In this document: one piece after another, positions 1,971-62,083 of the stretch
Layout of the letters: the number at the start of each line of letters is the position of its first letter
Numbering within the stretch: the first letter of the stretch is position 1
From: Squalus acanthias
Taxonomy: Eukaryota
Reading direction: 5' to 3'
NCBI GenBank assembly: GCA_030390025.1
Contig: CM059432.1
Span: 23,252,001 to 23,316,000 of the forward strand
DNA: 64,000 bases
Position numbers and translations under genes: made by a program
Notes under the pieces: model-generated
Databases searched by the model: none
The model's input: the letters and a program-made list of their open reading frames with translations, nothing else
Told to the model about the DNA's origin: nothing

Positions 1971-2024
1971 GGTGAACGAGGACCTCCAGGACCTCAAGGT
2001 CCTCCTGGTTTAAGAGGTGATCAG
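1971..2024 (+). CDS. COL22A1: COL22A1 exon, 54 bp ([18 protein letters not shown])
   Basis: ttttag|GGT...CAG|gtaaga; Gly-X-Y; phase 0/0. Confidence 0.9.
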
Positions 2025-5000
2025 GTAAGATATATGCATTTCTGGGAGAGTTCAGATCATGGGGGAACCGTTACCTATTGCCGAAAGCCTCAGAACCTCC
2101 TTACGGTTGATCCTGATTGAAGTTAACCAACACTCTAGACATGAAAGCATCGACTCAAAACTCTTTCATATGCGACAGAATAGTCAGTTATCTATTGAAC
2201 AGTTCAGTATGTAAAAAGATTGAAAGGCTGCACATTCAGAAAAGCAAATAATTTCTTTAAGGAGATTTATACATTTTCATTGACCATGTCAATTGTTGGG
2301 CTCAACAATTTCAGAACTTTTGCATCAACAGTTAACATTTTTGATTGGTTGGGTTTGCAATTTATAAAGTGGTAGAAACCACAGAGTGTAATAGAATCAT
2401 TTAGTGTATTGTAAGCAACAAACAACCTTTCTCAAAGGCTCAGCAAGTTAGGCCAGTGGACAGCTGAGCTATACAAACTAGTCCAGTCAGTCATTTTAGC
2501 ATCCAACTCTAGAAGTATATTAGCCCACCGCCACACTTAAGAAGTCAATCTTTATGAATGTGCTACTGTTTAGAAGGGTGGGTGCATCAGTCCCTTACAT
2601 TTCTGTGCCTCCTCTCCTTGAGTCTTTGCAGCAAAGATTCCACCTCCTTGCCTACAAAAGTAGTTTTCTTCACTCTGTAACATCGAAATCTACTGGGATT
2701 TTTTTAAATATTCATTCATGGGATGTGGGCGTCGCTGGCAAGGCCAGCATTTATTGCCCATCCTCAGTTGCCCTTGAGAAGGTGGTGGTGAGCCGCCTTC
2801 TTGAACCGCTGCAGTCCGTGTGGGGAAGGTACTCCCACAGTGCTATTAGGGAGGGAGTTCCAGGATTTTGACCCAGCGACGATGAAGGAACGGCGATATA
2901 CTTCCAAGTCAGGATGGTGTGTGACTTGGAGGGAACTTGGAGGTGGTGGTGTTCCCATGCGTGGGCTGCCCTTGTCCTTCTAGGTGGAAGAGGTCGCGGG
3001 TTTGGGAGGTGCTGCCGAGGAAGCCTTGGCGAGTTGCTGCAGTGCATCTTGTAGATGGTACACACTGCAGCCACGGTGCGCCGGTGGAAGAGGCAATGAA
3101 TGTTTAAGGTGGTGGATGGGGTTCCACTCAAGCGGGCTGCTTTGCCTTGGATGGTGTCGAGCTTCTTGAGTGTTGTTGGAGCTGCACTCATCTAGGCAAG
3201 TGGAGAGTATTCCATCACACTCCTGACTTGTGCCTTGTAGATGGTGGAAAGGCTTTGGGGAGTCAGGAGGTGAGACACTCGCCGCTGAACAAAATCGGCC
3301 TTTGGCTTTCCAGTACTATTTCAGATGCTTAACTGCTTCGTAATTGCAGTTCCAACAGTTTAAGTGGATTAGTGCTCCTCCCATTGCAGTCAATGGAACT
3401 GAATATCAGGAGCTGCGTATAGCGGGCAGCCGATCCGATACTGCCCGTTTTGCGCCACTGCCCGAGATGAATTTCTACCCCAGATTGTCTCCACTAACTG
3501 ATGAGATGATGAGAAAACACAGATTTAAGATAATCACAGAATAATTAATGAGGTGGTTAGAAGACATTTATTAATGCAGAGGGTGAGTAGAATGTGTAAT
3601 TCACTGCCAAAACTATTGCTGAAACAGAGTCCAAGGGAGTTGGATAGTTGCTTGGAAAAAAAGGAATACTTCAGGGCACGGGGAGCAAGCAGAAGAGTGG
3701 GATAAGACTAGCTGGCTCATGTGGAGAAAAACACTGGCGCAGACTATCATTCTGTAATAAGACTCTGCCCTCATTATGTATGTATTGTGTTTACAGGGTA
3801 AAAGTGGTCCTCTCGGCCCTGAAGGAAAGTCTGGTATTCCAGGTGTCCCGGTAAGTCCCACAGTTAATTTTTAAGAAAAGAAGACTATGCAGGGGTGAAT
3901 CCGGGGGAAATATCCTGTTATACTGGCACAGGATTTGGATAAGTACCTGACACGGGAATTGGATAAGTACCTGAAGGAAAAAAACTTGCAGGGCTACAGG
4001 GAAAGGGTGGGGGAGTGTGACTAGCTGAAGTGATCTTGCAGAGAGCCGGCACGGGCTCGACGGGCCAAATGGCCTCCTTCTGTGCTGTAACCAATCTATG
4101 ATTCTATGACATGATTTGCCTAACAAACTTTGGACTCTAGGGAATCAAGGGATATGGAGATCGGGCGGGAAAGTAGAGTTGAGGTCGATGATCAGCCATG
4201 ATCTTATTGAATGGCAGAGCAGGCTCGAGAGGCCGTATGACCTACTCCTGCTCTTATTTCTTATGTTCTTATTTTCTAAAAGCTGATGATATACAGGAAA
4301 GTAGACTGACCACAATATAGCTATACAGGAGTTACATACTTTGGGGGGCATATAATAATGGGGCTGATTTTCTACGGTTCCCCTTCTCCCAGGAGTGGAG
4401 TGGTGCTTGAGCATGCAATAGTTGAGGCCCAGCATCCAGACTTAAATGAGTCAGCCCAGTCTCCTGTTGCAGCATCTATCGGGGTTCCCATATGCAAGGG
4501 CATCCCAGGAAGCTGGTAGTGGGTTTGTAGCGGGACACCCCTCAGATCTGAGGGTCCCAAGAAGGGCCCAACAGCAAGGTGAAGAGGTCTGATAAAGTTA
4601 AGTTGAACCTTTTCATTTGAGAGACTCATAGATCTTTGGGCCTTGGGGCTCTCCAGCGTCAGTCAGGAAGACTCTAAAGCCAGCAGCCTGGACTGCAGAT
4701 GTAGGTTTCTCAGGCCGGTGACTGTGCTCCTCTTTTCTCCCAAATTTGCCGCGACAAAAGTCTGCTGTGCCGTTAGTGCAAACAACGTTTATGGTCTGGT
4801 TACCGAATTTGGGTGCTGCTCAGCCTGGAGACAGGCACAGTGTTTGTCAGTTGGTATGCTTGTCCAGTGTCGGGGCAAGAAGGACAAATAAACTAGGTCA
4901 CCGTAAATTTTGATTAAACTGGAATTATTTTACTATTGAATATTTTATGGCTGGAATTATGCTGTGTGATATTGACATACAAACATATGAGCACATTAGT

Positions 5001-8000
5001 ATGAAATCCCTTTGTCCACTATTTTAATCTGTTTAGTCCCTTAAAATTGGGTCAACCAATCTCACGTGAATGCACCAATACAATATAACGCAGCCCCATT
5101 TATTATTTCCGCCTTTTGGATGAGGCATTAAACTGGACCCCCGTCTGCCTGTTCAGGTGGATGTAAAAGATCATATGGCACTACTTGAAGAGCAGGTGAT
5201 TGTTCCTAGTCTCCTGGCCAACATTTGTCCCGCAGCCAACACCATCATAACCGATTGGCTGGCCATTTATCTCTTTTGCAGTTTGTCTCTGACGTATCAC
5301 ACAATCAGGGTCTCTGGGGGAGAAATTGAGTATCGCCCCGAAAAAGTAGCGCCGGGCGCTACACCAGTGAATCCGACACGAACTTCGGGTTTAGCGCTCC
5401 AGGAAGGAAGTGGAGCGCTAAATCAAAAACTACCACTTCCCTTGGAGCGCTAAAGTTCAGCAAGAGGGGCGGTAGCGGTGTAGCGCTGCCCAGTGTCGAG
5501 TGCAGCGCTACCGGGAATGGGGGCTCCTTCCCTCCCTTAAAGGGAAGGGCCATTGCTGCAGGTTCTGCACTAAATTGATGTCCCTCGTCGCCAACAGCAG
5601 CCGTGATCCACGACGATCAGCCCCCAAGCACTTTAACAGAGCACAGGGCTGATAAATCGCGGCACAGGAAAAAGTTGAAAAAACAACCTAAGGGGTGGAA
5701 ATAATTTTTTCATTGACACAAGCGGCCTTACCTTTAAATACCGTTCCCCAAGTGGCCGGCCTCCCTAACAACGCCTCCTGCAGCTGCCGGTGTTACCGCC
5801 CGGCGATGCTGCGGGGGGCGGAACCGAAGTTCGGATCCAGGGCGCTGCCGGGACGCCACGCAGCCGGATGACGTCACAATCTCGTGGCGCTAGTGGTTAC
5901 CGCCGCCGCAAACCTCCACGTCAATTTCGAGGGCGTCGGTACTATCGCCGCGCCCGCTCGCAAAGCCGGTAGCGCCCCGTTAACGACCCCCAGAGGCACT
6001 AACGGGAGACACAAAAGAGGCCGATTTCTCCCCCTCTGTATCTCAGCTGTCTTACAATTTGTGGGATATCAGTTATTCAGTTTCAACTTCTCTCTCTCAG
6101 CTATTTCACTACAGTGTTAGTGTCACATATTAATGGTCTCGATCTTTCCCAGCTATTACACATTCTCTGGGGTATGACACATTCTGTGCTGTTTCTCTCA
6201 ACTGTCGCACTTTCTTTGGTGCATCATATCACATTCTATGGGATATCATATATTCAGAGTGTTTCCCTCACAGTGAAGAGTTTCTCTCTCACAACTATTA
6301 CATTCTCCGGGTATCCCACATTCAGGGTCACTGCTCATAGTTGCCAGTTCAGTTCCTGTTAAATATTCTTCTCATTCAGAATTGTGAATGTTGTTACATA
6401 TGAAACTTGATTTACACTGTACTGCACAGATGGAGTACATGGTACAGTAAAACTCAAGTCTCACACCAGTTGCTCAAGACTCATTAGAGCGTGGAGACTT
6501 GTAAAGTTTCTTTCAACAATGAGGTTCAAAAAGACTCTTGTGGTACTGTACACTGTCAAAAATATGTGGGACACATTACTCAAAATAGTGGACTTGTTTA
6601 TGTCTTAGGAGGTTGAGCGTTATGCCAAGTAATCCTTATTTATATGGATATATTATTTTGAGCAATGTTATTGTTAATCTATTGCCAGTTAAATTCTTGA
6701 GATTGCTCTCCCGATGACTTAGTGAGTACCCAGAAATACAGCAGGTTTGATGTCTAGTCTATGTTGAGTTAGCCAATCTCAGCTGGGTTGTCAGTGGGGC
6801 TCTTACAATTGATCTAAGTGTCCTTGGGCAAAAAAGAGGAAAACTTCAGTTGGAGTACCCACGTCTTCTGTGTGAATATTAGGTGAGGACAAGGTTAGCT
6901 TCAACAGTGATGTGTTTCATAATTTAATAACCTGCCAACACTTGCTGTCTAGACCCACAGACACTTGGTAAGGTAGAAAGAAGGCCTCACCTTCAGGAGA
7001 AAAAGAGGAGAAAAACGGGAAAAGACCAAAAGGAAACATTTCTGTAACCTTGCAGTGATGAGGCCAAGATTTTTCAATGTTAGTGTCCTGTCATCATTCA
7101 TGCTGTAAAGCACAGGCTAATATTTGGATAGGAAAGTTTCCTCACAAAAAACTGTTCTACTAAAAATGCAAAATACCATCATTCTTGGACAGACCTTTAG
7201 TTGATTGATGTATTTGGTTTTTTTTTCAGATTTCAGACAATAAGCTATTTATGTTTCACCTGAAATGATTTTGAATTTTAGGGAGTAAAGGGTTCCAAAG
7301 GAACAACCGGAGACCCAGGTTTTCCAGGGGTCCAGGGACTACCAGGATCGCGGGTGAGTATCGTTTGTCTTATTCCTTTCCTCACAACTGAGGTGGAATT
7401 GTTTTTAAAATGTGTTTGCTAAACACCTGATGAAAGCTAACTTCTCTCTATGAAACAACAAAGATGAAGCTGTCCCATTGTCTAAAGCAGACATCTTGAC
7501 GGGGCCTCCTAAACCTGCATTAGGCCAGTGTGTCTTCTCCGTTCTGGCTTCTTGAAATGGCTGTTTTCGAAGCTCCAAAATAAAGCTAATTACAAAACCA
7601 AAACAAGAAATAATTATCAAAAAATAACTCTATGGTGTTTAGTACTCCACAATAGATGGAAGAACTCTGGGATATAGTATCATAATTCTAATGGTATAAG
7701 AAAGAACTTTGTGGGTGGCACCATATTGTTGATGGTACATGGAGAAATTCTATTAGTTAGTACCCTCTGTGTCAATACCTCATATAGCCGGAGTTTTCCC
7801 GCTGCCATGCATGCGGGTTAGAGGCAGGTCGGCAGTAAAATTTGTTAAATATGGGCCCGGGTCAGGAACTTGCCGTCGTCCCACCTCCTCGCGCCTTTTA
7901 CTCGGGTGCGTTTGCCAGCGCGCCACTGACCCGAATGGCACAGGCGGGCGACCTAATTAATCTCATTAACTCCTTGTTATGAGACCCTTAACAGGGATTT

Positions 8001-11000: not shown

Positions 11001-14000
11001 TATATTCTCCAGTATGATACATTTTGTCCACATCGAAGAATATTGGTTTCAAGATCCTGATCCTTGTCTATAAATCTTCCATGGACTGGCCCCACTTTAC
11101 CTCAGCAACATTTTCCAGCTCTACACCACAGTTTGCACTCTTTGTTCTTCCAACTCTGTCCTCCTGTGTCTTCATTCACCAACTTCCCCATTGGTAGCAG
11201 AGCCTTCATCAGGAACTCCCTTTCTAAACCCTCCCTCCTTCTACCAACCACCCAGTCTTCCCCCAATTTCTCCTCTTGTATTTACCAATGCCTTGTAAAG
11301 TGGCATAGGACATTTTGCTATGTTAAAGGGACAATATAAATGCAAGTTGGTATTGTTTGTCATCTTCATTTTCTTCATGAACAGGGCCTGCCAGGAGAGA
11401 CAGGATCCCCAGGCAAAACAGTAAGTAATGCACGTTGTGTTTATTTTCACATTAGTTTAATAAAATTGGTCGCGTTTATTTCCAACACCAGATTTCTGAT
11501 TGGTCACCTTGGAGGACAAGACCTGATTTCTGATTGGTCCCTTGGAGGACAAGACAAACCCAGCAGTTTATCTGGAATGTGTAATTAGATCCTGCCTACC
11601 TAAGTAATCAAGGAGATCCGGAGGGTTCAGACCAAACATGTGCCCTTAAAGAAAAAAGGTGGGACTAACAAATCTAGAGCCCCCTGGATGTCTAGAGACA
11701 TACAGGGTAGGATAAAGAAAAAATGACAGATACCGAGGGCTAAATACTCCAGAATCTTTAGGGGAGTACAGAAAGTGCAGGGGTGCAATTAAAAAGGATA
11801 TTAGGAAAGCAAAGAGAGAGCATGAAAAATTCTTGGCAAGGAAAATCAAGGAAAACACAAAGATGTTTCATAAATATATTAAGAGTAAGAGGAAAACTAA
11901 AGAAAGGGTAGGGCCTATTAGAGATCATGAGGGTAATCTGTGTGTGGAGGCGGGAGACGTCGGTAGTGTTCTTAATGAATACTTTGAATCTGTTTTCACA
12001 AAGGAGAGGGGCGAAGCAGACATTGCTATCGGGGGAGGAGTGTGAAATATTAGATGAAATAAACATAGTGAGAGAGGAAGTATGAAGGGGTTTAGCAGCT
12101 TTAAAAGTGGATAAATCCCCAGGCCTGGATGAAATGTATCCCAGGCTGTTAAGCGAAGCAAAAGAGGAAATAGCAGAGGCCCTGACCATCATTTTTCAAT
12201 CCTCTCTGGCTTCAGGTGTGGTGCCAGAGGACTGGAGGACTGCTAATGTGGTACCCTTGTTTAAAAAGGGAGAAAAGGATAGACTGAGTAATTACAGGCC
12301 AGTCAGCCTAACCTCGGTGGTGGGAAAATTATTGGAAAGAATTCTGAAGGACAGGATAAATCTTCATTTAGAAAGACACGGATTAATCAAGGATAGTCAG
12401 CACGGATTTGTTAAGGGAAGGTCGTGTCTGACAAACTTGATTGAATTTTTTGAGGAGGTAAGAAGGAGGGTAGATGAGGGTAGTGCATTTGATGTAGTGT
12501 ATATGGACTTTAGCAAGGCTTTTGATAAGGTTCCACATGGCAGACTGGTCACGAAGTTAAAAGCCCATGGGATCCAGGGCAAAGTGTCAAGTTGGATTCA
12601 AAACTGGCTCGAAGACAGGAAGCAGAGGGTAATGGTTGATGGGTGTTTTTGTGACTGGAAGGCTGTTTCCAGTGGGGTTCCGCAGGGCTCAGTACTAGGT
12701 CCCTTGCTTTTTGTGGTATATATCAACGATCTTGACTTGAATATGATTAAGAAGTTTGCAGATGATACTAAAATCGGCTGTGTGGTTGATACTGAAGAAG
12801 GAAGCTGTAGACTGCAGGAAGATATCAATAAATTGGTCAGGTGGGCAGAACAGTGGCAAATGGAATACAATCCGGAGAAGTGTGAGGTAATGCTTTTGGG
12901 GAGGGCTAACAAGGAAAGGGAATACACATTAAATGGTAGGACACTGAGTAGTGTAGAGGAACAAAGGGACCTTGGAGTGCATGTCCACAGATCCCTGAAG
13001 GTAGCAGGCCAAGTAGATAAGGTGGTTAAGAAGGCATACGGAATGCTTGCCTTTATTAGCCGTGGCATAGAATACAAGAGCAGGGGGGTTATGCTTCAAC
13101 TGTATAAAACATTAGTTAGGCCTCAGCTAGAGTACTGCGTGCAGTTCTGGTCACCACATTACAGGAAAGATGTGATTGCACTAGAGAGGGTACAGAGGAG
13201 ATTTACAAGGATGTTGCCGGGAGTAGAGAATCTTAGCTATGAGGAAAGACTGGATAGGCTGGGTCTGTTTTCCTTGGAACAGAGGAGGCTGAGGGGAGAC
13301 TTTATTGAGGTGTATCAAATTATGAGGGGCATAGATAAAGTGGATAGAAAGGCTCTATTTCCCTTAGCAGAGGGATCAAAAACCAGGGGGCACAGATTTA
13401 AAGTAATTGGGGGAAGGTTTAGAGGGGATTTGAGGGGAAATTTCTTCACCCAGAGGGTTGTGGGGGTCTGGAACTCACTGCCTGAAAGGGTGGTAGAGGC
13501 AGGAACCCTAACCACATTTAAAAAGTACTTGGATGTACACTTGGGATGCTCTAACCTGCAGGGCTACGGACCAAGAGCTGGGAAGTGGGATTAGGCTGGA
13601 TAGCTCTTTGTTGGCCGGCGTGGACACGATGGGCCGAAATGGCCTCCTTCCGTGCTGTAACTTTCTATGATTCTATGATTCTATAAGTACTTTGCAAAGT
13701 GTAATTCGAGCCATTCTGACTGCCAGGCTCCAGACAGAACAGAGTTCACCCTCGGGGGTCAAGACCTTCTCCCATCCCCCAAACAAGTCCCTGCCCCTCC
13801 AACAAGTTATTAACCTTCCTTCCACGACCCCCCCAGTTCCTGACCTCCCCCCAAGCTTCTGACCTTCCCCATCCCCCCAAGTTTCTGACCTTCCCCTCCT
13901 GCCCAGTTTCTGACCTTCTCCCCCTGCCCAAGTTTCTGACCTTCCCCTCCTGCCCAAGTTTCTGACCTTCTCCCCCTGCCCAAATTTCTGACCTTCTCCC

Positions 14001-17000
14001 TCTTCCCAAGTTTCTGACCTCCCCCCTGCCCCACAAAGTTTCTGACCTTCCCCTTCCCCCAAGTTCCTGACGTTCTCCCCCCTCCCCACCCAAGTTCCTG
14101 ACCTTCCCCCGCTCCGGGTTCCTGACCTTCTCGCCCCAACCAGTTCTTGACCTTCCCCCCATAGATGGGGCATTGTGTGTGGGTCACAGATTGTTAACAA
14201 GTTTATTGGGTATGAAGTGAATAGTAACAGTGTCATGACTTCCGGATTCCGTCCAGTCCAATGATATCACTGTCCACACACACACCGAGCTTTCCTTGAA
14301 ATCAACCAGATCTAGAGGGAGGAGAGGGAGAATGTGGTGCGCATGTAAAGGGGATGGGGTTGGAAGAACGTGATCCATCTTACCATCTGGATCACGTTCT
14401 CGCTCTCATTTCCCCCCTCCTTTAGACCATGATTACGTTCTTCCCCATCCCCACTGTGCTCTCCGTGCTTTTTACCCCTCTCCCCGAGTTCCTGACCTTC
14501 TCTCTCCCTGAGTGCCTGACCTCCTCTCCCCTCCCCTCTTCTCTTTCTCTCCCCCTTACTCTCTCCCCTCTCTCTCCCTCCTCTCTCCATCCCCTCTCTC
14601 TCTCTCTCCCCCTCTCTCTCTCCATCCCCTTTCTCTCTCTCTCTCTCTCTCCTCTTTCTCCCACCTCTCCCTCTCTCTCCTCCCCCTCCTCTCACTCTCT
14701 CCCCACCCCGATCCCCTCCTCTCTCTCCTCCCTCCTCTCTCTCTCCCCCTCCAATCACCCCTCTCTCCCCTCCGAGCCTCTCTCTCTTCCCCCGATCCTC
14801 TCACTCTTCCCCCTCCGATCCCCTCTCTCACACCCCTCAGATTCCCTCTCACTCTCTCCACCTCCGATTCCCTCTCTCTCCCTCCACTGATCCTCTCTCT
14901 CCCCCTTGATCCCCTCTCTCTCACCCCTCTGATCCTCTCTCTCCCCCGATCCCCTCTCCCTCACACCTCCAATCCCCTCTCTCTCCCTCCTCCAATCCTC
15001 TCTCTCCCCCGATCTCTCTTCCCCCCCGATCCCCTCTCACCCCTCAGATTCCCTCGCTCTCCACCCATCCCCTCTCCCCCCCGATCCCCTCTCTCCCCCC
15101 GATCCTCTCTCTCCCCCCTTGATCCCCTCTTTCTCTCCCCTCTGATCCTGTCTCTCCCCCGAATCCCCTCTCCCTCACTCCTCCAATTCCCTCTCTCCCC
15201 TCCGATCCTCTCTCTCTCCCCCGATCATCTCTCTCTTCCCCCCCATCCCCTCTCTCCCCCTCAGATTCCCTCTCTCTCTCCCCCACCGATTCTCTCTCTC
15301 TCCCCCCCATCCTCTCTCTCTTACCCCCCCGATCCCCTCTCTCTCACCCCTCAGATTCCCTCTCTCTCCCCCCCCCCCCCAATCCCCTCTCTCTCACCCC
15401 TCAGATTCCCTCTCTCTCTCTCCCCCTCCGATCCCCTCTATCTCTCCACTTTTGATCCTCTCTGTTCCCCTCCCGGCCACCAACGGATCCAGTGACTTTC
15501 TCCGCACGGAGCCGAGAAAATCGTGACCCATTACGGGCCTCAATGGTTGGGTACTGCGAATGAGCAGGGTTGGTAAACAGCACGCATGGCGCGGGAGGGG
15601 ATCGAGTGCGCATGCGCTAGGCTGGGATACCATGCACATGCGCAGAAGGCTGTAAAAATGTTCGTGCAAATAATCACACTGAATAAAATTCATCTGTTCA
15701 TGGTCGTTATTTAACTTACTCTGAACTGAGCCACAGACTCTTTTATGTTGAAGATGCAATAGTTTAAGACTGGCTTTGCTCTTTTGTGCAGGGATCTCCA
15801 GGCAAATCAGGCGATCGGGGGTCCAAAGGAGAAAGGGTAAGTGAAGCAATGATGAAGCCAAATAGAATATTACTACGGCTTTCTAAACACTTAGTTAACC
15901 AAATAAGCTGATGATGCACATCAGGGACCCATCAGATGAGATACTGATCCAATGTAAAAAGGTATAACTGAATGTGCAATGTTGTGAATTTCATTGTAAA
16001 TCCAAAGCCAATGCCGCTTAGGGAAAATATCAGGCCCCAGGTGAGGTTAGTTGAAATCATCACAGACCTGGTATCAAGCCTAGAACTTGCTCGGTCTGTG
16101 TGGCTCAGTACTGCACTGGTTAATGCATTTATTCACTGAGCCATCAAGACAACATACAATTCAGTTTTAAAGGGAACAGCTCGTTGGTGTTGTGACATGG
16201 GGTAGATTTTTATAATTACCAACTGGGGGTTAAGCATTGCCTGGACTGACTATGGAAGGGGAAATCTGGCCAGAAGGATTGCATGCTACTAACAGAATCC
16301 ATCAATTTTTCTTCCATTGAAATGAATAAAAGGAAGATCCAGCATGTGATCCTCCACAGCCAGACTTTTCTGTGCTCCACCGAGGCAATGCTTAACACCC
16401 AGGCAGTAACAGCTAAAATCTATCTCCGTGGAGTTCCTGGTTCATGCCGAGGTTTCCTCCCATGGTTAACTTCTCATCCTAGCCAACATGAGGGGCCGTT
16501 TGGCCTACTCCTGCTCTTATTTCTTATTCCTCCCCCAACCAACACCAGAAGAAACAGATTAATTAGTCGTTTGTCTTATTTGCTGTTTGAGGGATCCTGC
16601 TGTGCACAAATTGCCTGTCCCGTTTGCATACTTAACAACAGTAACGATACTTCAAAAATAATTTCTTTGTTGTGAAGTGCTCTGGGACATCCTTAGAACA
16701 TGGTAAGATGCTTTATAAATGCAAATGTGTTCCTCCTTTCCTTAACTCACCTGGAGAATAACTGTGATACAGAATTATGCAGAGTCTGGAGAAGGGAAAT
16801 AAATAACACGGTTGAGAACTATTTTTAACAAAGACAGTGAGCCCAATTTTTTAATGAGATTTAGGGGAAAAAATTCGGTTGGTTTGGGCCTCCCATTAGT
16901 GCCTCCGGGGGCGCTAACGGGGCGCCAACGACTTACCACCTGTGTGTGGCGATTTTAACCGCATGGCCTCAGTATCCGATGAGGCTCCGGCTTGGTATTC

Positions 17001-42975: not shown

Positions 42976-43009
42976 ACCCTGAAGGACACCAGGGATGTGA
43001 ATATGGACT

Positions 43010-46882: not shown

Positions 46883-47094
46883 TTATTTTGACGGTCCTTT
46901 CATATTCATAGATTTCTTGCCACTACCCATTCCCATGAAGAGGTGAGGTGGACCCATGCAGGAAGATGCATCACAGATACCAGGAAAGCCTCTGAGCCCA
47001 GGTGTGCCAGGATGTCCTTGTTCACCAGGCACGCCAATTTCACCACGGGTACCATCACGCCCATTCTTGCCAATACCGGGCAAGCCAGCATCAC
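46883..47094 (-). CDS. COL9-like terminal coding exon (...[35 protein letters not shown])
   Basis: ttgcag|GT GAT...; Cys-X4-Cys motif; TAA at 46885-46883. Confidence 0.92.
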
Positions 47095-50000: not shown

Positions 50001-53000
50001 AAGCTCAGTTCTAATAGCAGAGATCGGTATGAAAACAACTTGAAATCTTTCCATAGCTATTCACTGAAACTTATAAAAAGTTAAGAAATGAAACAAGAAA
50101 AGATCTCTTGGTCCATCAACCCGTTTTTTCCCCCAGAGACTGACCCTAAAAGTCTGCGACCTGTTATGCAGACTGCTGCTGTAAGTCTAGTGGGGCTCTG
50201 CCGGAATAGCCAAGACCTGGATGCGCAGAGTCTGGGCTTTAAGCCAGGGGATTCCACGATGGCCTAGTTGGGGCAGAGCCACCTCTCACCACTTCAAGGC
50301 CATTAATGTCATGAGGGTTGTGAACTCTGGAATACCAGTGTTTCCCCCATCCAGACACTCAACTGGGACCCAATGTAACGTCAATGGAGGTGCACTTGGT
50401 CACGCCAGGTGTTCCTTCCAGGAAGTGGGGCCCACCTAGGGGTTCAAGCCAGAGTGGAGGCCTGGACCCCTGAAGAGGCAGGCTCAAAGAGGCCAGCAAC
50501 TAATGTCACTTTATGCGGTCTCTTTTGCTGAGACGCACCACAGATGTATGCCCCCAGTACCAAATGCCTGTCTCTCTTGGCTCTACCCTCAATCCAAGAA
50601 CTTCAGCGGAGTCAGAAGAGGAGACCAGGGGTGGTTGCATCCTGGTGCTTACATCTGGCACCCCGTGGATTTTTGGGCCCACTATTGCCTTATTGTGGAG
50701 TTCACCAACTCATTCAACCACCTAGAGCGAAAGATCTGCAACATTTCCCTATGGCCCTCATAGGTAGTGAACAGAAGCTGAAGAATATCTCTCACAACGT
50801 TGATCATTCTACACCATTTACTGTGCTGCAATCTTTGGTCATAGGGGATCTACGGTTATATGTGTGGAGCATGGAAGGTAATATATTAATTATAAGTCCG
50901 CAGGCTAGTAAGCTACCTGGCATTATTCAATGCCACATGTATTTTATATTTGACTTTTCTACTACCACAGTTGGGGAGAGGCTAGGAGGTTACATGTTTA
51001 CAGAGTTGCTCCAGGGTGGAAGTCAAAATAAGCTTTGCTACCCGTCCCTCACGTAATCACCATTAAATTTGTTGTTCTCATCTTTTTGGTCCTTCTGTAA
51101 TACACACCATACAGGCATGTGATACCGGCAAGTGACTTCCTCCCAGTCGTTAGCCTGTACTATTTTAGAAGCTGATTGCTTGGACAAAAGTGGCCCAGGG
51201 CACAGCCGACATCAGCACATTGCCATGGCTCCCTTCCAACCAATCAATGTGCATATTTACCACTCTTGTCCACAACAGATTTTGTCTACTACAAGTCTAT
51301 TGACAGAAACGAGGTACACTTCTCTATGCTAAATAGCTTACTGAAAGCTTTCATACAATGGGTTGAAATGGTTTTCCTACCTTTTGATCCTGGTTCACCA
51401 GGGTAACCTTGGTGACCTTTGATACCTTGTGAGCCAATAGCACCTGGGTGGCCTGCAGGTCCTGGAGGTCCAGTTGGTCCTGGAGGTCCAGTTGATCCAG
51501 GACGGCCTGGTTCCCCAGATACTACTGGCCGTCTTAGGCTGGCAGACAGCTGAGATATTTGCTCTAAAAATAAAATAGCATAAGTGAGAGCTGGCCTCAC
51601 AAATTGAATATTAGTCAACCTTATTAGTTATTAATATGCACTATTTAATGCAATTTATGTTCTTTCAACCATTCTTATCCCACACTAAGTTCCATTCACA
51701 GGTCACCCCTATGCCACTAATGGTTCCCCATCTCCCAGCTCTCTGATTGCAACACTTTTATCCTGGTTTACAAATCCCCACATGGATTTGCCCATCCTGT
51801 ATCTGCAACCGACTCCAGCCCTACATTGATCTCCACTCCTTTAATCTTCCGTCTATGGTCTGTTGTGAATCGGCTACTGCCTTTACACCATTGGTGGTAT
51901 AGCTTTCAGTCATTATCCACACTCTTTCCCACCACCCCCCTCCCCTACCCCCAGCCCATTGGAATTCCCTTGATGAAAGCTTCCTTGCCATATCTCTTCC
52001 CACTTTCAAAAGTCTCCTCAAAATCTGCTTTTTTTCAATTGTGCCTTCTGCCACATGTTCTAAGCCTCCTCCCAAACACCTACTCGGTGTTTGGTTCACC
52101 CTCCCCCACGGTAAAATGCACTGGGACATTTTGCTACTTCAAAGGTGTTTTATATCATTTGTGGGACTTGAGCCCACAACTTTCTGAACCAGCATTAAAC
52201 CAAGGCTGACCCTTGAAGAAGAATCGCTTTGTGTGGTGAAATTGTAACCTGGTTCAGTTTAAATGTATTTCAAACTTAACGGCAGGACCTCATTAGCATT
52301 TTATTACTCCCGTTTCCTGCCCGGCAGCCAGCCGGATTGAGAGGCTGGCCATCTGCCAGGCGGAAAAGCCAGCATTAGAAGGCCACAGTCGAAGACCACT
52401 GAGGACGGTTCCCGGCAATCGGAGAAGATCGGGGTATGGTGGCGGGGGTGGGGCTCAGAGCATGGCAGCGAGGAGGGAGGGAGAAATCACGGGGAGGGTA
52501 GAGATCGCGGGGAGGGAGAGATTGCGGCAGAAGATTTGCTTGAAAGGCCGGAGGAAGCACTCCTGCTCCTCTTGGCCCACAAGCAGTGCTGGAAAAGCAC
52601 TTACCTGCTGGATCTGGCAGCTCACGCCTACTTTTAGCTGCCGGGTTTCCCGAGCCCTGTGAAACCCGGCCGGCAGCCATTAAATGCAAATGGATCCCAA
52701 AATCCGAGGAAAGGGGCCTCATTTAAATATTATAATTACGGACCCGTTTCTCCAGAGCGGGTTACTCGGACGCCTCCAAACCCATTGCGGTTAACTGACT
52801 GGCGTGTTCGCAGCGGGTTGGGGTTGGGTTTCACATTTTTACCGATTTAACATCCCCCTCCGACCCTTTCCCGTCCATCATGGTGGGGTTAAAATTCCCT
52901 ACACTGTCTATATTGCTAAATAACATATTGAAGTGATTTAAGTTAATTTTATTTTACTGAGAAACCTCGGTGAAGAGCCACGAGTTGTAGTCCAGGACAC

Positions 53001-56000
53001 CACTATGGTTCAGGAGGGTAGGGGAGAAGCCAAAGTAACCCTGGAAGTAACGATTAGGCAACGCTGAACTTGTTTTTCGAAAAGCATATTGATTATAGTA
53101 AGGAGGGAAGCCTGAGGGAGGTAAGGAGTTCCATTGTCAGCTAGAGAGAGGAGATGGTGCAATGAATCTTGATTTCAACAAAGTGAGAATGTTCCAGTAA
53201 CCTTAAACGTTCAATTAACTTTGTAAATCACTTCTGCTACACCCTTGCGTTGAACCTGTGTCACTGCTTTGTGACTTCCTCGAACTCATTATTACTTTTT
53301 CTGCAACAACTATATGGTCCATTACTGACCAGATTCATTCACGCGGTAGTTTAACAAGACGGGAAGGAAGCAAAGCCTTTGAAAACCAGTTGAATTCATT
53401 ACTTTGTAACAATATTGTTGGAGAATGTTTGCTCCCCAGCATTTTGGCCAGTGTTCAAGGCTTACCCTGTTTTTTTTAAAGAGCAGATTTTTCTCCTTTG
53501 TCCATAGCAGCAGTTATTTGTTAGCGGCTGTAACTGGAAAGCTGCCGGACCCCTGACAGAGGAGGATGCTGGGAATGATTCGGGCTGGGATCGGCCTCAG
53601 CTCAGAGAATAGTTTGTGTGATTTTTCTGCCCCTCCTCCCAATCACCTCTTCAAGGCAGGCTACAGCTCCAAAGTGCCAGCAGTCTTCTGATGCTTTACC
53701 CAAGTTACCATTCTTCAGACGTGAGCCTAGAAATTAAGCGCCCGCAGGCTATTCAACATGGGGAGGAGAGGGGAGGGAGCACTGTAGCCCATCCTGATGC
53801 TGCCCCCATCTGACCACCACACCCAAGTACTTCTCAGTACAGGTCACTCGCTAATGATCGGGAACAGGAATCTTGATTGATTTTTCCCTGCCCCAGCTCA
53901 AGGATACTCAGCCATGAACTCATTGAACAGGCTCGAGGAGCTGAGTAGTCTATTCCTGTTCCTATGATACCAATTGAAGCTGCCCTACCACTCCCCTGGC
54001 TGCAGATCAACTAGCTCAGACTGGGACACAAACTTAGATAAAATCACAGAAAGGATTAAAAGGAGATGCTAGAAAATGATTTCTTTATACTGAGGAGGGT
54101 TAGAACGTGGAATTCTCTGCCACAAAACAGGCATCCCTGGTGTTCGGTGTTGCTAAAGTGAGATTACGGCAAATATTGAAGGCCACCAGCAGAAAATCTA
54201 ATGGGCGGGAATATGCCTGCCAATTTTATGCTCCCATCCATCCCACTCTCATCAGGAAATTGGAAAAGGGAGAGTGAAAAATACAGAGAGCGCGAGGCCT
54301 TGAAATTACACTGTGCTAATAGAGCATACACATGCTTAATGAATTCACATGAAATTCATCTGTCAGTTACTTTAACAGAATGAAATGCCTCTATTAAAAT
54401 AGCAGACAATGGAAAGGGACAGACAGAGGGAGCACCAGACAGATGGAGGGACAGATCTTAAACCCCTTGAAAATGAAAACTCTCAAAAGTACAAGCTGAA
54501 GACGGCACCCACTCACTCACCTTGAATCATGCTCATACACACCTCCCTGATTCGGCGCTCACTTGGCTCTTTGCCCTGTGGAAGAAGATTTAGTTTAGCA
54601 GCAAAGGCACATTGGAAAGATCGAACAAAAGAATTTAGTCATTGCTTGCCCTTAAAGCTGCAGCACTGAACTATTGGGGTGAATTTTAAAAGGTTTTTGT
54701 TGTCAATATAGTCAGGATACATTCAGAAGTTTTTAGCAATCCTGAGTTCTAATGCATGACAGCTATGAGAAATAAAGTATATAATGATAGTTTTAGCAAA
54801 CGCGCACAGTGCGTTAACGCAATCTCCTTTTGCCTCTGAGGCCTGGCTTGGAATCCAGTCCAGACTAATGGGATATATGCAAGGGTGTTATAATGGTCAG
54901 TCACAATCTAATTCCTGGTAGAAGTAAATCCACAACACAAAACTGCCTATAATTCAGCACAATTGGCAATAAATTTACAGAGTAGATTTTCCTCTTCAGC
55001 ATCCAGGCATAAAGGATTGGCAGGGCATAAGTATTTATCGCCCAGGCTGCAAGAGGAAAACTTGCCCACAGTCTCAATCTGCCTCCAGTTCTTTGAAGTG
55101 CCTGATGTTGGAATGATTATAGTGGAGACCAGAAAGGAAACTTAAAATATTCACCAAAAACACGAAGGTTAGATGCAAACAACTGGTTGTCTTGCCACAG
55201 AAACTTAACAAGTGGTAAACTTGGGTCAAAGCCAAAGAAATATGTTTGAGTACCATTGACCTCAACGGTATCTCAAAAACTGCTCAGAGATTATCCAGGG
55301 CCCTAAACACTCCTTCCAGCTGAAACAGCGATTTACTTGTACTTCTTTCAAATTTAGTATACTGTATTCGCTGCTCACGATGCAGTCTCCTCTACACTGG
55401 GGAGACCAAACGCAGATTGGGTGACTGCTTTGTGAACACCTCCATTCAGTCCGTAAGCGTGACCCCGGGCTTCCGGTCACCTGTCATTTTAATTCACTGA
55501 CCACTCCCACTCTGACCTCTCTATCCTCGGCCTCCTACACTGTTCCAATGAAGCTCAACGTAAGCTCGAGGAACAGCACCTCATCTTTCTATTAGGCACT
55601 TTACAGCCTTCCGGACTCAACACGGAGTTCAACAATTTCAGATCATAACCTCTGCCCCCATTTTTTTGACGGCAGCTGTTACGGATGATTCTGCTATTCC
55701 CATTTACACCTCCTCTAGACCCATCTTCTGATTCTTTATTTGTCCCATTACCATCTCCTTTTGCCTTGTACCATCATCCCTTTTGTCATTTAATCTCTCT
55801 TGCCTTCCACCCTCTCACAGACCTTCCCTTTTGTTCTTTCCTCTGTTCGCCCCCTTTCCCTGCCTCTGTACTTGCTTAAAACCTGTTACATCTTTAACTT
55901 TTTCCAGTTCTGACGAAAGGTCATCGACCTGAAACGTTAACTCTGTTCCTCTCTCCATAGCTGCTGCCTGACCTGCTGAATATTTCCAAAATGTTCTGTT

Positions 56001-59000
56001 TTTATTTCAGATTTCCAGCATCCACATTATTTGGCCTTTGCTCAGAAATCATTCTCCACAGGTAACCTTAACCTTCCTAGAAACAAGGATCTCCACAATT
56101 AATTAATGGGCTGTGTCTGCTTAAATCTGTAGCTGCAAAATATTTGTACAATCTTGCCTGAACAAAGAAACTATATTATATTATATATTATAAGAGATGT
56201 CCAACATGGCAGCATGACAACTCTGGGTTGAGATCCTATTGATAAAGCACTCAATCTTTGTAGATGCAGTGTATACTCTTGCAGTTTATGATATCAGCTC
56301 CTTTTCTCAATGTGCCACTAACATTTTTTACATTCATTTCATTCTTGGGTTGTGGGCGTCGCTGGCAAGGCTGGCACTTATTGCACATCCCTGGTTGCCC
56401 TGAGAATGTGGTGGTGGGCCTTATTCTTGAACTTTCTGAAATGAGCTGGCCTTGCAATATGGGACAAGGTTAGCTCACTGCAGAGCAGGTACGTGCAGCA
56501 TTTGAGGAGCAGTGGGCTCAGCAGCTTTGCACCAGGATTGCAATATCGATCCCATAATGTTCCGAGCACATCTTCCCTCGGATACTTACATGTTTACCTG
56601 GTGAGCCAGGAAGCCCGGGAACCCCTCGTACTCCTTCCAATCCTCGAGCACCGACTGCACCTGGAGGTCCCTGAAAACCAGGCCGCCCACGAGGCCCTTG
56701 CGGCCCAATCGGGCCGGATTCACCAAGAGTTCCAGACTATGGAGGTAAAACCAAAAGGCTTGACTCTGGCAGATGTGTACATTCTACTTTAATGCAACAA
56801 AACAAAAAGATAGAAATGCATTTGTAATTAGGCTGGCAAATCTCAAATTAAATTCCAGATTGATTTGTATCTGATTGACAATGTAGGTCAACTATTCTGG
56901 TTTCATTTTAATCGACCCACAGTTGCACTTAATTCGTAGCTCTGTATAAAGCTCAAGACTTGAATACTGTTCCACGATCTGAATAAATCTCACACTCCAG
57001 GGCAGGATTAAAGAAAACGTTCACTAAAATAATCTCCATACAATCATCCAAAGCTTTTCAGTTCTTTGCAAAGCAAAAAATCCCTGTTTGGATTTCCAAC
57101 CCATTAGCTCTCACTTCCTCTCCTCCTCCCTTTTTGTTTTGTTCAGTTCCATTAATACTTCACTTATCTTCCAGTTTCTAGTTCTGATGAAGGGTCTACA
57201 CCCAAAACGTTAACCCGACTTTCTCCTTACAGATGCCACCTGTCCTGCTGTGCATTTCAAGCATTTTGTGCTTTTACCTCAGATTTTTGGCATTTGTAGT
57301 ATGTTTCTTTATATTTCCAAAAAAAGCATTATTTGAAAAGTGATCCTTTGCCTCCAAACCTCTATCGCTCTCCATTGCAACCTTTCTTGTCTTTCTGTTT
57401 TATTGATGCTGAAAAGCTCATACCAGTTTAATTTTTCTTCTAAGCTGAACATCCTCCATCCCCGTTATGTTGAAATCAAGACTTACCACACCATCTCCTT
57501 CTCTAGCCCATGTGTTGAGGAACTCAAGTCAGTGTCGGCTTCCTTCTACAATCTACAAGCTTTTAAAACCCAACCTTGGCACTATCTAATCATTAGGAAC
57601 ATTGGAATATAGGATCAGGAGGAGGCCATTCAGCCCCTTGAGCCTGTTTCGCCATTCAATGAGATCATGGCTGATCTGCGACCTAACTTCATATTGGTCT
57701 TTGGCCCATATCCCTTAATACCTTTGATTAACAAAAAGCTATCAATCTTAGATTTAAAATTAATAATTGATCTAGCACCAATTGCCATTTGCAGAAGAGA
57801 GTTCCAAACTACTACCACCCTTTGTGTGTAGAAGTGTTTCCTAATTTCACTCCTGAAAGGTCTGGCTCTAATTTTGTAGACTATGCCCCCTAGTCCTAGA
57901 ATACCCAACCAGCGGAAATAGTTTATCTCTATCTATCCTATCTGTTCCCCTTAATATCTTCAAAACTTCGATCAGATCACCCCTTAACCTTCTAAATTCT
58001 AGGGAATACAACCCTAATTTGTGTAATCGCTCCTCATAACTTAACCCTTGAAGTCCAAGGATCATTCTGGTAAATCTACTCTGCACTCTGTCCAAGGCCA
58101 ATATATGCTTCCTAAGGTGTGGTGCCCAGAACTGCTCACAGTACTCCAGGTGTGGTCTAACCAGGGTTTTGTATAGCTGCAGCACAACTTCTACCCCCTT
58201 GTATTCTAGTCCTCTAGATATAAAGGCTAGCATTCCATTAGCCTTTTTGATTATTTTCAGTACCTGTTCATGACATTTTAATGATCTATGTACCTGGACC
58301 CCCAATTCTCTTTGGACCTCCACTGTTTTTAGCTTTTCACCATTTAGAAGGTACCCTGCTCTATCCTTTTTAGGTCCAATTAGCCTCACATTTGCCTACA
58401 CTGAAATCCATTTGCCACTTACTTCTTGGCTTCTCTTCTTTAGAAGGAAAAAGAAAATTGGTGGGGAGGGGGTCAGGTTTTATCGTATCTGACCTTGTAC
58501 CTCATGCTTAACAAAATACCATCACCACCAATCTCAAAACAATTAGAACCAATATTAAAATGAAATCTCTAGAACTATTTGCCCCCATTAAGTTGATACA
58601 TACCTCTCCTTTCTTGCCTTGAACACCAGGAATGCCCTTTAAAAGACAAATACATAATTTTCCTCAAAAATATTGAACATCTACAAAAGAGAGCAATGCT
58701 TACACTGTAACAGAACCATGGGGGTAATATTCACCTCCTACTGCATGGGGGAGCAGATCGCCCTCCCATTGTAGAACCCGCCCGATTTTCAGCTCATCGC
58801 CGCTCGCCCAGGTACTGCCCAGGAGGCAAATGAAAATTGTCTAAAGACCCCACTTGGTCTTGATTCCCTGTGTGCAGTGCCATGGGAGATTGACAAATAC
58901 ACCTACAGAGAAATATACATGGAAGCTGCTCCTTAATTGGAAAAATGGGAATGTGTAGCAATTGCTGCCGCATTATCTCCAAATAATACCGTAATCCCGG

Positions 59001-62000
59001 AAATAATTAATGGACACTCAGGAAAAAACGATATGCCAGGTGAAGATCATTCTTTAAGAATATAAAATCAGTGAGAATCGATTCCTTCCCAAACACTCAA
59101 CGGTAGCTAATAATTCTCCCGTAATTGCTTGACTCAAAAATTTCAGTTTGAGCAGAAGTTTTGCTGGGGAATTTCATAGTGCAGTAAATGCCAAGAGCCA
59201 CCAGGTGGAGCAAGAGTCATGGACCTATGTTTACAAAGGCTCAATACGAAGGACTTCGGGGAAAAATTCCATTGGTTATCGCCTTCAGTTAGCGCCTGGC
59301 AGGGGCGCTAACGGAGCGCCGATGAAGTAGCGCTGGGGTGAGGCGAATCCAGAGACGCACGCCAAATCCGCCCCCCCCCCACCACCCCCCGTAGTGCCGC
59401 CACTACGAGTTACCGCCGGGGACCTCAGCGCCAGGCAGATCGTGATGTCAGTGAGCGTGCAACAGGGAGAGGAGGCGTCAAGCAGGCAGATGCCGGCTCC
59501 AGGGGCGCTACTTAAAGGGATCATGAGTAATGAGTCGCAGTTATCAGGTTAGTGCTGTTTCACTGCTTCCTTTCAGTTTGACATTGTGCAACAGTTTAAT
59601 TCAGTCATTTAAAGGTTGTTTAGTATCAGGAGTGTTGTGGCTATTAACAATTAGTTACATTTATTCTCACAACATATTAAAGTGCTACACTTGGTTACAT
59701 TAATGGGGGCTGTACTGGCAGTCGATCTCGCCCTCCAGGATCTACGGTGGAGGGAGCGGAGGCAGCAAGAAAGATTGGAACATGTGGCCAGAGGGAGGAG
59801 AAGGGCCATGAGGGCTGCTTGAGTCTTCCGGCTCCTTCTCCTTGACCTGCTGCTGCTGGCTGAGACGGCTGCACAGCCAGCAATGATGAGAATGAGGTTC
59901 TGCAGCATCAATGAACCTCCCCTTTAAGAACTGGAAAGAGTCTGTGGCAATGATGACTTGTGATTAGACTGCACCCGATATTGGTCAGCACTTCGAGTTT
60001 AACGCCACTGAGGTAGGCCATTAGCACTTGATTTAGTGCTCCAATCCTTTCTTTGTGCAATGAGACTTAATTTTGGGTGCAGTCTGAAGCATTAGCGCCT
60101 GGCGCTAATTCTCAAACTTTTCAAATGTTACCACCCATCCCTGGGCTATAATGAATTTCTCCCCCTTTAACTTATTTCATAGCTTACCTGCTCGCCCTTT
60201 TCTCCAGACTCGCCATTTATACCTGGTTTTCCCTTTTAAAAGTAAAATTAAAGAGATTCAATCAGGTAGTGCCCGAGTCTATCGGGGACATGATACAGTG
60301 TCATTGCAGATAATCACCAGTCACAGGTGTATAAGCATTGGTACATTTGAAAGATGTCACCCTCAGGATTATCAACCATCATTTCTTTTATACATCTGAA
60401 TTTTATCCAGATCATTATCACGGTGCTCGGTCAACACAATAATTTAGTCCAAGGTGTTTACTATGATGGATGATGAATAAATCAATTCTAACATTGCAAC
60501 AGTGACTACACTTCAAAAATACTTCATTGGCTGTGAAGTGTTTTGGGAGGGCTTGAGATTGCGGAAGGCGCTATATAAATGCAAGTCCTTTCATTCCTTA
60601 ATAACAACAATAACTTGGACTTATATAGTGCCCTTATTATAGAAAATTGTTCCAAAGCACTTCACAGAGGTATAATTAAAAAAAATGGATGTTGAGCCAA
60701 AGTAGGAGATATTGAGAGAGGTGACCAAAAGATTGGTCAAAGAGGTGTCTTTAAGGAGGTATTAAAGGAAGAGATGGAGGTGCAGGACCTGAGGAGTTTA
60801 GGGAGGGAATTCCAGAGTGTGGGGTCTAGGCGGCTAATGGCATGATCACCAATGGTGGGGGAGGAGGAGATACACAAGAAGCCTGAGTTAGAGGAATGGA
60901 GAGTTGTGGGGTTGTAGGGCTGGAGGAGGTTACAGAGACAGGGAGAGGCAAGGCCATGGAGGGACATAAGGGTGCAAATTTTAAGTTTGAGGCATTGGGG
61001 ACGAGGAGCCAGTGTAGGTCATCAAGGACTTGAGTAATTTGTGAGCAGGATTTGGTCGAGGATAGGATAGGGGCAGCAGATATACTTAACTCTAGCACAA
61101 CTCTCTCGTGGTTCAGTTGGTGAATTCACCACTCAGTATACAACCGGGTCTTAAGTGGTGATTTTGCAATATCGAGGCTGTGAATGGCTAGCTGTCTAGC
61201 CCAAGTTAGCCCACAACAAACTGAGATGGCATTGCCCTAATTTAAAGTCATTTGAACAACTCAAAGGCCTAGATTTTCCAATTGGCATTAACCTTTTAAT
61301 AATGGATGAGCAGCACTGCCGATGAGGAAGCATTGAGAAAGCTGCACAATGCTGCAAGATGCCCATTTACGTCAAATTTGGAGCTTTAACAAGGCTTGTG
61401 TTAACCAAGAGTGCAGCCTCAAAACAGGCAGCTGTGTTTCCCCACATGGGACTTGCTGCGAATTGGGCACACTACCCATTTCACAACCCTTGTACCCAGC
61501 CAGCGATGCTTCGCACCACTAGTGGGACTTTGCGAAATGCCCCCTACACAGTCCAGAGATGTTCCAGGTTTGATCCTCATTCTTTGTTGAGTTCACGGAT
61601 CTCAGCAGTTACATCTGTAGAGGTGCTTCAATTGGTCGTAGCACCCCTGGGGTAGGGAGAGGGAAATAAAAAAACAAATCAGACCTCCTGATTACTAACC
61701 AGTGACTCTCGCTGCAAAGTGCGCGTGTGTTGACATCAACTGAGGATAGCAGGAGGCTTGGCTGTAATGCTGACTATCCTCCCAACACTTTAATGTCAAG
61801 TTTCAAGCACGGAGAAGAGCCACTTGGATGAGATGGGGCAACAGCTGTATTCTTGTATGAGTCAGCAGCTTCAGGAGAAGGGGAAGAAATTGGGTTGGGA
61901 AGGGGGGGGGACTTTACATTCTCCTCCTTTAAAATCAAAACTTAACCACGGATAGGATTCTGCGATGAACAATAATAACTTTTATCAGCTTTTGCTGGTT

Positions 62001-62083
62001 GCCTTTCTGAATGTCAACACCACTGAATGGATGCACAATTATTTTACCTCATTTCCTTTGAGACCATGAATACCAGCAGAGCC
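46883..62083 (-). CDS. Collagen IX alpha chain, COL9A3-like, 3' part (8 coding exons; the gene continues beyond the window end)
   Basis: Exons 62083-62048, 60232-60188, 58636-58604, 56736-56590, 54575-54521, 51563-51381, 49976-49899 and 47094-46883 splice in frame. NC2 [31 protein letters not shown] resembles recalled human COL9A3 GKEASEQRIRELCGGMISEQIAQLAAHLRKP, and GICDASSC resembles GICDTSAC. Orthology (COL9A3 or a sister paralogue) is unresolved. Confidence 0.85.
49899..49976 (-). CDS. COL9-like exon, 78 bp ([26 protein letters not shown])
   Basis: tgacag|GT...CCCG|gtaaac. Confidence 0.9.
51381..51563 (-). CDS. COL9-like exon, 183 bp ([23 protein letters not shown]...GEPGSK)
   Basis: ttttag|AG...AAAG|gtagga; 61 codons, equal to the recalled COL9A3 segment (the COL9A1 equivalent is 2 residues longer). 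Confidence 0.92.
54521..54575 (-). CDS. COL9-like NC2 exon, 55 bp ([18 protein letters not shown])
   Basis: ccacag|GGC...CAAG|gtgagt; NC2 cysteine present. Confidence 0.9.
54795..54975 (+). mobile_element. Old SINE fragment resembling LF-SINE
   Basis: ccttttgcctctgaggcctggcttggaatccagtccag...tccacaacacaaaactgcc...cacaattggca resembles the recalled LF-SINE consensus. Confidence 0.4.
55290..56040 (+). mobile_element. Penelope-like element 3' fragment
   Basis: GIY-YIG remnant ([24 protein letters not shown]) and the same 3' tail as 36190-36659. Confidence 0.85.
56590..56736 (-). CDS. COL9-like exon, 147 bp ([11 protein letters not shown]...GSPGKH)
   Basis: ccatag|TCT...CAT|gtaagt. Confidence 0.9.
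57594..58420 (-). mobile_element. CR1 LINE 3' fragment
   Basis: [20 protein letters not shown]...[21 protein letters not shown]. Confidence 0.88.
58604..58636 (-). CDS. COL9-like exon, 33 bp ([11 protein letters not shown])
   Basis: ttaaag|GGC...GAG|gtatgt; the last triplet is completed by Ser of the next exon, as recalled for collagen IX genes. Confidence 0.87.
59257..60165. mobile_element. Harbinger-type non-autonomous element related to 16864-18193
   Basis: Termini GGGGAAAAATTC / GAATTTCTCCCCC; shares cctcccctttaagaactggaa and subterminal tagcgcc motifs with 17920-18150. Confidence 0.7.
60188..60232 (-). CDS. COL9-like exon, 45 bp ([15 protein letters not shown])
   Basis: taaaag|GGA...CAG|gtaagc. 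Confidence 0.87.
60600..61080 (-). mobile_element. L2-type LINE 3' fragment
   Basis: [18 protein letters not shown]...LWNSLP remnant with a (TTG)n-like tail. Confidence 0.7.
62048..62083 (-). CDS. COL9-like exon, 36 bp ([12 protein letters not shown])
   Basis: tttcag|GGC...GAG|gtaaaa on the minus strand. Confidence 0.85.

Follow-up and report, generated by a model that had tools for sequence, protein, structure and literature searches.

An intact fourth collagen IX gene, probably older than the split of sharks and bony fishes, converges on COL22A1 in Squalus acanthias

We analyzed a 64,000-base stretch of the Squalus acanthias genome (3.7 Gb), positions 23,252,001 to 23,316,000 of contig C8, hereafter the window; C9, C11, and C845 are further contigs of that genome. 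The window holds the 3' parts of two collagen genes, COL22A1 on the plus strand and a collagen IX-type gene on the minus strand, which we refer to as the fourth COL9 gene. The convergence of the two, proposed in the original prediction, is real: both frames are open with canonical splice sites, and the stop codons are separated by 22,286 bases. Nine perfect AG-(Gly-X-Y)n-GT exons were present in the window, compared with none in 19 of 20 shuffles and one in the remaining shuffle. The exons of the two genes, in positions of the window, are as follows.

1971-24596, plus strand: COL22A1, last 10 exons, a single open frame with a COL22-type NC1 and stop TGA at 24594-24596
1971-2024, 3797-3850, 7282-7353, 11385-11420, 15792-15836, plus strand: COL22A1, exons 1-5 of these 10
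18270-18449, 18902-18968, 20043-20225, 22105-22182, 24409-24596, plus strand: COL22A1, exons 6-10 of these 10
62048-62083, minus strand: fourth COL9 gene, 36-base COL2 exon
60188-60232, minus strand: fourth COL9 gene, 45-base COL2 exon
58604-58636, minus strand: fourth COL9 gene, 33-base COL2 exon
56590-56736, minus strand: fourth COL9 gene, 147-base exon with the end of COL2
54521-54575, minus strand: fourth COL9 gene, 55-base exon with the first half of the NC2 trimerization domain, including its cysteine
51381-51563, minus strand: fourth COL9 gene, 183-base exon with the second half of NC2 and the start of COL1
49899-49976, minus strand: fourth COL9 gene, 78-base COL1 exon
46883-47094, minus strand: fourth COL9 gene, last coding exon with the end of COL1, the two FACIT cysteines, NC1, and stop TAA at 46885-46883

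The minus-strand gene was modeled with 200 kb of sequence adjoining the window; there were no N letters in the window or in the following 200 kb. Eight exons lie in the window (62083 to 46883), and at least 106 kb more outside it carries COL2, NC3, COL3, and NC4. The full model comprises 36 exons encoding 950 amino acids without internal stops, with AG at 36/36 acceptors and GT or GC at 35/35 donors. The sole GC donor among the 35 introns belongs to the NC4 exon whose end is the first conserved cysteine segment (C8:23,418,799). The domain order is a signal-like exon leading straight into NC4 with no vWA domain, then COL3 (residues 272-429), NC3 with two cysteines, COL2 (440-778; 113 triplets without a break), NC2, COL1 (810-921), and NC1. 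A start-codon exon was looked for and not found. The gene thus has the collagen IX hallmarks: COL1 to COL3 with short NC spacers, NC2, the NC3 cysteine pair, and the FACIT cysteines at COL1/NC1. Its NC4, with a 397-base core exon, matched PDB 2UUR, the alpha1(IX) NC4, with an E value of 6.9e-51. The label "COL9A3-like" originally given to this gene therefore holds for its C-terminal part but not for the whole gene, which has an alpha1-type NC4 outside the window.

One low-depth read contig, from a run of a related organism that we guess to be RNA, was 97% alike and matched 51417-51565; its 30 unaligned letters shown corresponded, by eye, to the end of the 55-base exon. This suggests that the contig carries the predicted NC2 exon junction. 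When four runs were mapped on 1.9 kb, no joint was seen among the matches listed; the pieces were for the most part short and matched other collagens. Repeats dominated the alignments of four runs mapped on 16.8 kb.

The plus-strand gene is COL22A1, as indicated by its vWA and TSPN domains, long interrupted collagen region, and FAM135 neighbor. It starts ~240 kb upstream, at the vWA exon (Pfam VWA, E value 6.9e-54) and TSPN exons, and a long series of Gly-X-Y exons also lies upstream of the window. Within the window, AG was present at 10/10 acceptors and GT at 9/9 internal donors. The TSPN clustered in a tree with a Polypterus protein named COMA1. A single locus in the genome matched this COL22A1-type TSPN; here and below, genome-wide locus counts from domain and exon searches are lower bounds. 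We take the FAM135 gene on C8 to be the B paralogue (FAM135B), and the human gene order of COL22A1 and FAM135B is likewise our assumption.

By searching the genome with the last exon, we found three further COL9-type ends, on C11, C845, and C9. The NC3-to-NC1 exons of all three genes could be assembled stop-free with the same exon series. Sizes from NC3 through COL2 were identical in the four COL9 genes, which have in common the COL2 exon series 57, 8x54, 45, 3x54, 72, 36, 45, 33, 147, and 55. The C9 gene was named COL9A1 (alpha1) from the NC4 tree described below. The C11 gene was named COL9A3 (alpha3) from its neighbor OGFR, located 13 kb upstream, assuming the order OGFR-COL9A3 in human; OGFR family members were found near both the C9 and the C11 COL9 genes. 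The C845 gene was named COL9A2 (alpha2) from what we take to be characteristic sequence features. The proposal of a fourth collagen IX alpha chain was thus borne out by COL9A1, COL9A2, and COL9A3 at loci of their own. The case in which the genome would have three COL9 genes only is excluded by the four loci counted, as is the alternative of a true COL9A3 beside an extra COL22A1-like paralogue by the COL9A3-type gene adjoining OGFR on C11. COL9A3 identity of the minus-strand gene was rejected because NC4 is present and OGFR adjoins the C11 gene instead. COL9A1 orthology was rejected because the C9 gene joins tetrapod COL9A1 and the minus-strand gene falls in a separate clade. In COL2, the fourth COL9 gene was identical to alpha1-3 at 37-62 of 216 variable sites, compared with 50-56 of 216 among alpha1-3, so that its distance to each is similar to the distances among the three. 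Its C-terminal part does resemble alpha3(IX), as would be expected if COL9A3 had been relocated beside COL22A1 or the locus were an assembly artifact. The probability of either is negligible, given the C11 gene by OGFR, which differs at 167/216 variable COL2 sites, the N-free sequence of the window and the next 200 kb, and the orthologues in other sharks and bony fishes.

Two side observations concern the other COL9 loci. Three COL9A3 exons are duplicated across a 443-base N gap at C11:4,629,464-4,639,638, probably an assembly duplication. In COL9A2, a simple tandem repeat of ~50 kb (about 121-174 kb on C845) occupies the intron between the two NC2 exons.

Gene order pointed to the origin of the fourth COL9 gene. 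FAM135 domain matches were found at only two sites in the genome, C9:36.28 Mb and C8:23.74 Mb. C8 has the order COL22A1 (+), fourth COL9 gene (-), FAM135 (+), and C9 has COL19A1-type (+), COL9A1 (-), FAM135 (+). In both places a minus-strand COL9 gene and a plus-strand COL19/22-type gene converge, and FAM135 sits past the COL9 5' end. This mirrored order is what a duplicated block predicts, and the same order and orientation on both contigs support the proposal of a retained COL19/22-COL9-FAM135 block. The flanking genes named with that proposal were FAM135B and KCNK9; a FAM135 gene was found beyond the COL9 5' end, but KCNK9 was not found beside COL22A1. The Polypterus member of the fourth-gene clade and Polypterus COL22A1 lie on scaffolds of identical length. 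We consider the fourth COL9 gene likely to be a whole-genome-duplication copy of the block.

The age and range of the gene were assessed with an NC4 tree of 55 rows. A 24-row group including the fourth COL9 gene formed a single clade (support 94/97), and the COL9A1 clade contained the C9 gene, other sharks, coelacanth, gar, teleosts, and five named tetrapods. Sharks, coelacanth, and teleosts have rows in both clades. Because both hold sharks and bony fishes, the duplication predates the split between these lineages. The NC4 exon of the fourth COL9 gene was 91% identical to that of white shark, 90% to catshark, 68-70% to sturgeons and paddlefish, 67% to coelacanth, and 60-64% to bichir and teleosts. 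The additional collagen that had been proposed for a cartilaginous fish is hence present in the shark but is not confined to such fishes, occurring also in sturgeons, bichir, coelacanth, and teleosts. The NCBI label of the white shark orthologue is "collagen alpha-1(IX) chain," and true COL9A1-clade shark proteins are labeled "alpha-1(IX) chain-like." Among 142 further cluster representatives, 10 were at least 89% alike to a named clade member, all closest to teleost proteins; 22 others with a clade member as best match at 55% or less were left out of the clade counts.

Instead of whole-genome duplication, a COL9A1-type gene could have been copied early by local or segmental duplication and placed beside COL22A1 later, which would account for some of these observations. 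NC4 is common to the fourth gene and COL9A1 only, COL2 is nearest COL9A1 (62/216 variable sites versus 49 and 37), and the tree (fourth gene + alpha1),(alpha2 + alpha3) was not rejected by the approximately unbiased (AU) test (p-AU 0.062). We regard this origin as improbable: C8 and C9 show COL19/22, COL9, and FAM135 in one arrangement of order and strand, and the two ladder trees in which the fourth gene and alpha1 split last were rejected (p-AU 0.028 and 0.009).

Several data bear on which chain is sister to the fourth one. The best trees placed the fourth COL9 gene weakly with alpha1-3 (bootstrap 69-75), and the one-clade tests gave p values of 0.41 with alpha3 as sister, 0.18 with alpha1, and 0.10 with alpha2. 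COL2 site patterns for the sister chain were divided 4/6/2, and the shark NC2 shares 17/31 identities with alpha1 and 17/31 with alpha3. Exons of 183 and 72 bases occur in the fourth COL9 gene and alpha3, and exons of 189 and 63 bases in alpha1 and alpha2. COL22A1 also has a 183-base exon, so this size may be the old state. The pairing that we assume for these paralogons would fit the fourth gene as the sister of COL9A3.

The gene is known in bony fishes under other names. Zebrafish col9a1c (prp mutant) encodes a collagen IX chain located on actinotrichia (PMC10119692), and knockout or loss of col9a1c disorders actinotrichia (PMC10119692, PMC11409509). The peptide encoded by the zebrafish col9a1c primers (PMC10119692) occurs in 11/12 named teleost members of the fourth-gene clade, either identical or with a single change, and in 0/8 COL9A1-clade proteins; it was present in two cypriniforms (loach and carp). 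A C-terminal peptide of zebrafish Col9a1c matched the end of the catshark clade member. The fourth COL9 gene is thus likely, from these peptide matches and the NC4 tree, to be the orthologue of col9a1c. Excerpts from a 2026 Polypterus paper mention a col9a1 paralogue absent from tetrapods and describe "Col9a-like" as a marker of the dermal, actinodin-positive domain, with col9a1, a2, and a3 marking cartilage (PMC12923738). "Col9a-like" ranks second in the dermal top 50 of its supplement 9, whose endochondral top 50 includes col9a1b, a2, and a3. In bowfin, "col9a3-like a" rises 417-fold and "col9a3-like b" 19-fold, together with actinodins (PMC8423624, available text). The suggested novelty of the gene was not supported, since it groups with proteins bearing the Col9a1c peptide and a tetrapod-absent paralogue is already in print. 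Our literature search returned no text on synteny or a shark copy, and no statement that the names col9a1c, col9a1-like, and col9a3-like denote one gene; Huang 2009 and Nakagawa 2022, which may discuss phylogeny, lay outside it. The origin of the gene is not addressed in the available portions of PMC13120675, PMC13573005, PMC10161429, and PMC13121165. The kind of gene is known already, and its shark copy and paralogon position were not found in print.

Collagen IX acts on the fibril surface. Its NC2 selects and staggers the chains, with a disulfide joining alpha1 and alpha3 (PMC5126661, available text). The fourth chain is predicted to trimerize via NC2. COL1 and COL2 would then run along type I/II fibrils, and COL3 and NC4 would project from the fibril surface, linking fibrils to one another or to fin mesenchyme. 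In the shark, the substrate would be the ceratotrichia, as the orthologue data point to fin fibers. By analogy with bony fishes, the fourth chain likely stiffens fin fibers instead of entering the usual cartilage collagen IX. We lean toward a trimer distinct from the cartilage alpha1/alpha2/alpha3 molecule, either a homotrimer or one with other partners; such a trimer is preferred because Polypterus "Col9a-like" is dermal while col9a1, a2, and a3 are cartilaginous. The originally suggested change to the cartilage heterotrimer model would be speculative, and the Polypterus data favor the dermal fin domain over cartilage. A complex prediction with three copies of the catshark NC2 gave a score of 0.02, which is no answer and counts neither way.

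The product of the same ancient gene might instead be an alternative heterotrimer subunit that replaces alpha3 (or alpha1) beside alpha2, altering NC4 content in cartilage or fin. The registers would fit, as COL2 is equal in length in all four chains, and NC2 retains the cysteine that joins alpha1 and alpha3 (PMC5126661, available text). NC2-COL1 scored 140 bits against alpha3(IX) for catshark (107 for alpha2 and 93 for alpha1) and 141 bits for bichir (103 and 110, respectively). Teleost NC2, in contrast, shares only 6-9/31 identities with any shark alpha1-3. In addition, Polypterus col9a1b, a2, and a3 lie outside the dermal top 50 in which "Col9a-like" is second, where absence does not mean lack of expression (PMC12923738, available part). 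We consider such a subunit possible but doubtful.

Together, these data favor, with a probability of about 0.75, an intact fourth collagen IX gene that predates the split of sharks and bony fishes, is likely the orthologue of col9a1c and a whole-genome-duplication copy, and is predicted to coat and align fin collagen fibers. Observed are the intact gene with the exon and domain layout of collagen IX, the three further COL9 genes of the genome, the mirrored gene order, and an NC4 clade apart from COL9A1. Several points weigh against this interpretation. Conservation of the COL22A1 block extends to one flank only: the TRAPPC9 match, in a strict first look, was 33 Mb from COL22A1, and none of 54 listed potassium-channel matches was near it, TRAPPC9 and a potassium channel being what we take to be its human neighbors. 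The C-terminal tree joined shark and bony-fish members with support of 47/43, and AU tests on COL2-NC1 rejected 4/11 topologies and left 7/11, including one uniting the fourth gene with COL22 (p-AU 0.089). The duplication is tied to a genome doubling from jawed-vertebrate sequences only, so that this date is tentative. Loss of the gene in tetrapods, which we consider likely and which would parallel that of the actinodins, is read from 0 tetrapods among 22 named clade members in thin databases, with no tetrapod or lungfish genome searched. The shark sequence does not carry the Col9a1c primer peptide, and the zebrafish Col9a1c protein was in no search result, so that the link consists of primer-encoded peptides and the NC4 tree. 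Polypterus "col9a1-like" (LOC120515855) and bowfin "col9a3-like" were equated with the fourth gene by names and expression, from partly available sources, and the predicted fin role in the shark draws on data for bony-fish orthologues.

A broader scenario can be put forward only tentatively, with the odds somewhat against it. Jawed vertebrates would have had four ancestral COL9 ohnologues, with "COL9A4," the COL9A3 sister in the COL22A1-FAM135B block that kept NC4, building its own fin-fiber collagen IX outside the cartilage heterotrimer. It would serve both ceratotrichia and actinotrichia, and its deletion from the COL22A1-FAM135B interval would have accompanied that of the actinodins in the transition from fin to limb. 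The names col9a1c, col9a1-like, and col9a3-like would then refer to a single gene.

With the gene assigned to the COL22A1-FAM135 block, what has gone under several names (col9a1c in zebrafish, col9a1-like in Polypterus, col9a3-like in bowfin, and "alpha-1(IX)" in database entries) would be united as a single ancient gene at a defined locus. Present in sharks, it would be a second structural fin-fiber gene besides the actinodins, and a comparison of coelacanth, lungfish, and amphibians could date its loss. The fourth gene is listed as "COL9A1" in some shark and fish annotations, the white shark entry among them, which calls for caution in cartilage studies. The gene also offers a natural test case for NC2 chain selection.

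The two collagen genes lie tail to tail as predicted but are not immediately adjacent, since two features intervene.

37964-39921, plus strand: remnant of a long terminal repeat (LTR) retroelement or endogenous retrovirus, with an integrase core (Pfam rve, E value 8.5e-19)
40343-41155, plus strand: intact single-exon LRR gene of 270 amino acids, between the two collagens

Downstream of the integrase core, the remnant consists of broken-up frames without a Pfam match. The closest Atlas cluster to the LRR gene was the chordate "LRRC40-like" group (score 0.99). No paralogue of it was found in the genome, where it is single copy, and no counterpart was found between COL19A1 and COL9A1 on C9.

Elsewhere on C8 (131.685-131.72 Mb, plus strand) we noted a further unnamed FACIT gene, with a single-exon TSPN, no COL3 seen, and a COL2 that follows the exon series of collagens IX and XXI. 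It lies directly upstream of a COL21-like gene, and its skate and ray relatives are labeled "collagen alpha-1(IX)/alpha-2(IX) chain-like." This pair is mirrored on C9 (27.04-27.56 Mb, minus strand), where another single-exon TSPN lies upstream of a COL21A1-type gene. The two pairs, each with a COL21-type locus and an unnamed FACIT, are perhaps another retained paralogous block.

Compared with known systems, Polypterus LOC120515855 and bowfin "col9a3-like" differ in that the available texts of PMC12923738 and PMC8423624 give no synteny, shark copy, or col9a1c link for them. Zebrafish col9a1c is likewise an NC4-bearing collagen IX chain, whose primer-encoded N-terminal peptide is characteristic of teleost proteins in the fourth-gene clade. 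Its name implies a COL9A1 duplicate, however, whereas the clade is older than the split of sharks and bony fishes, and in the literature found it was studied in zebrafish only. COL9A3 shares with the fourth COL9 gene the 183- and 72-base exons, and alpha3(IX) is the best PDB match for NC2-COL1, but the COL9A3 locus gave no NC4 match and sits beside OGFR on C11. The long form of COL9A1 has the same plan (signal peptide, NC4 with a 397-base core exon, COL3, NC3 with two cysteines, COL2, NC2, COL1, and NC1). It differs in its exons of 189 and 63 bases in this genome, compared with 183 and 72 in the fourth COL9 gene, and in NC4, which is 55% identical and falls in a separate clade. Like the fourth COL9 gene, COL9A1 converges on a COL19/22-type gene beside FAM135.

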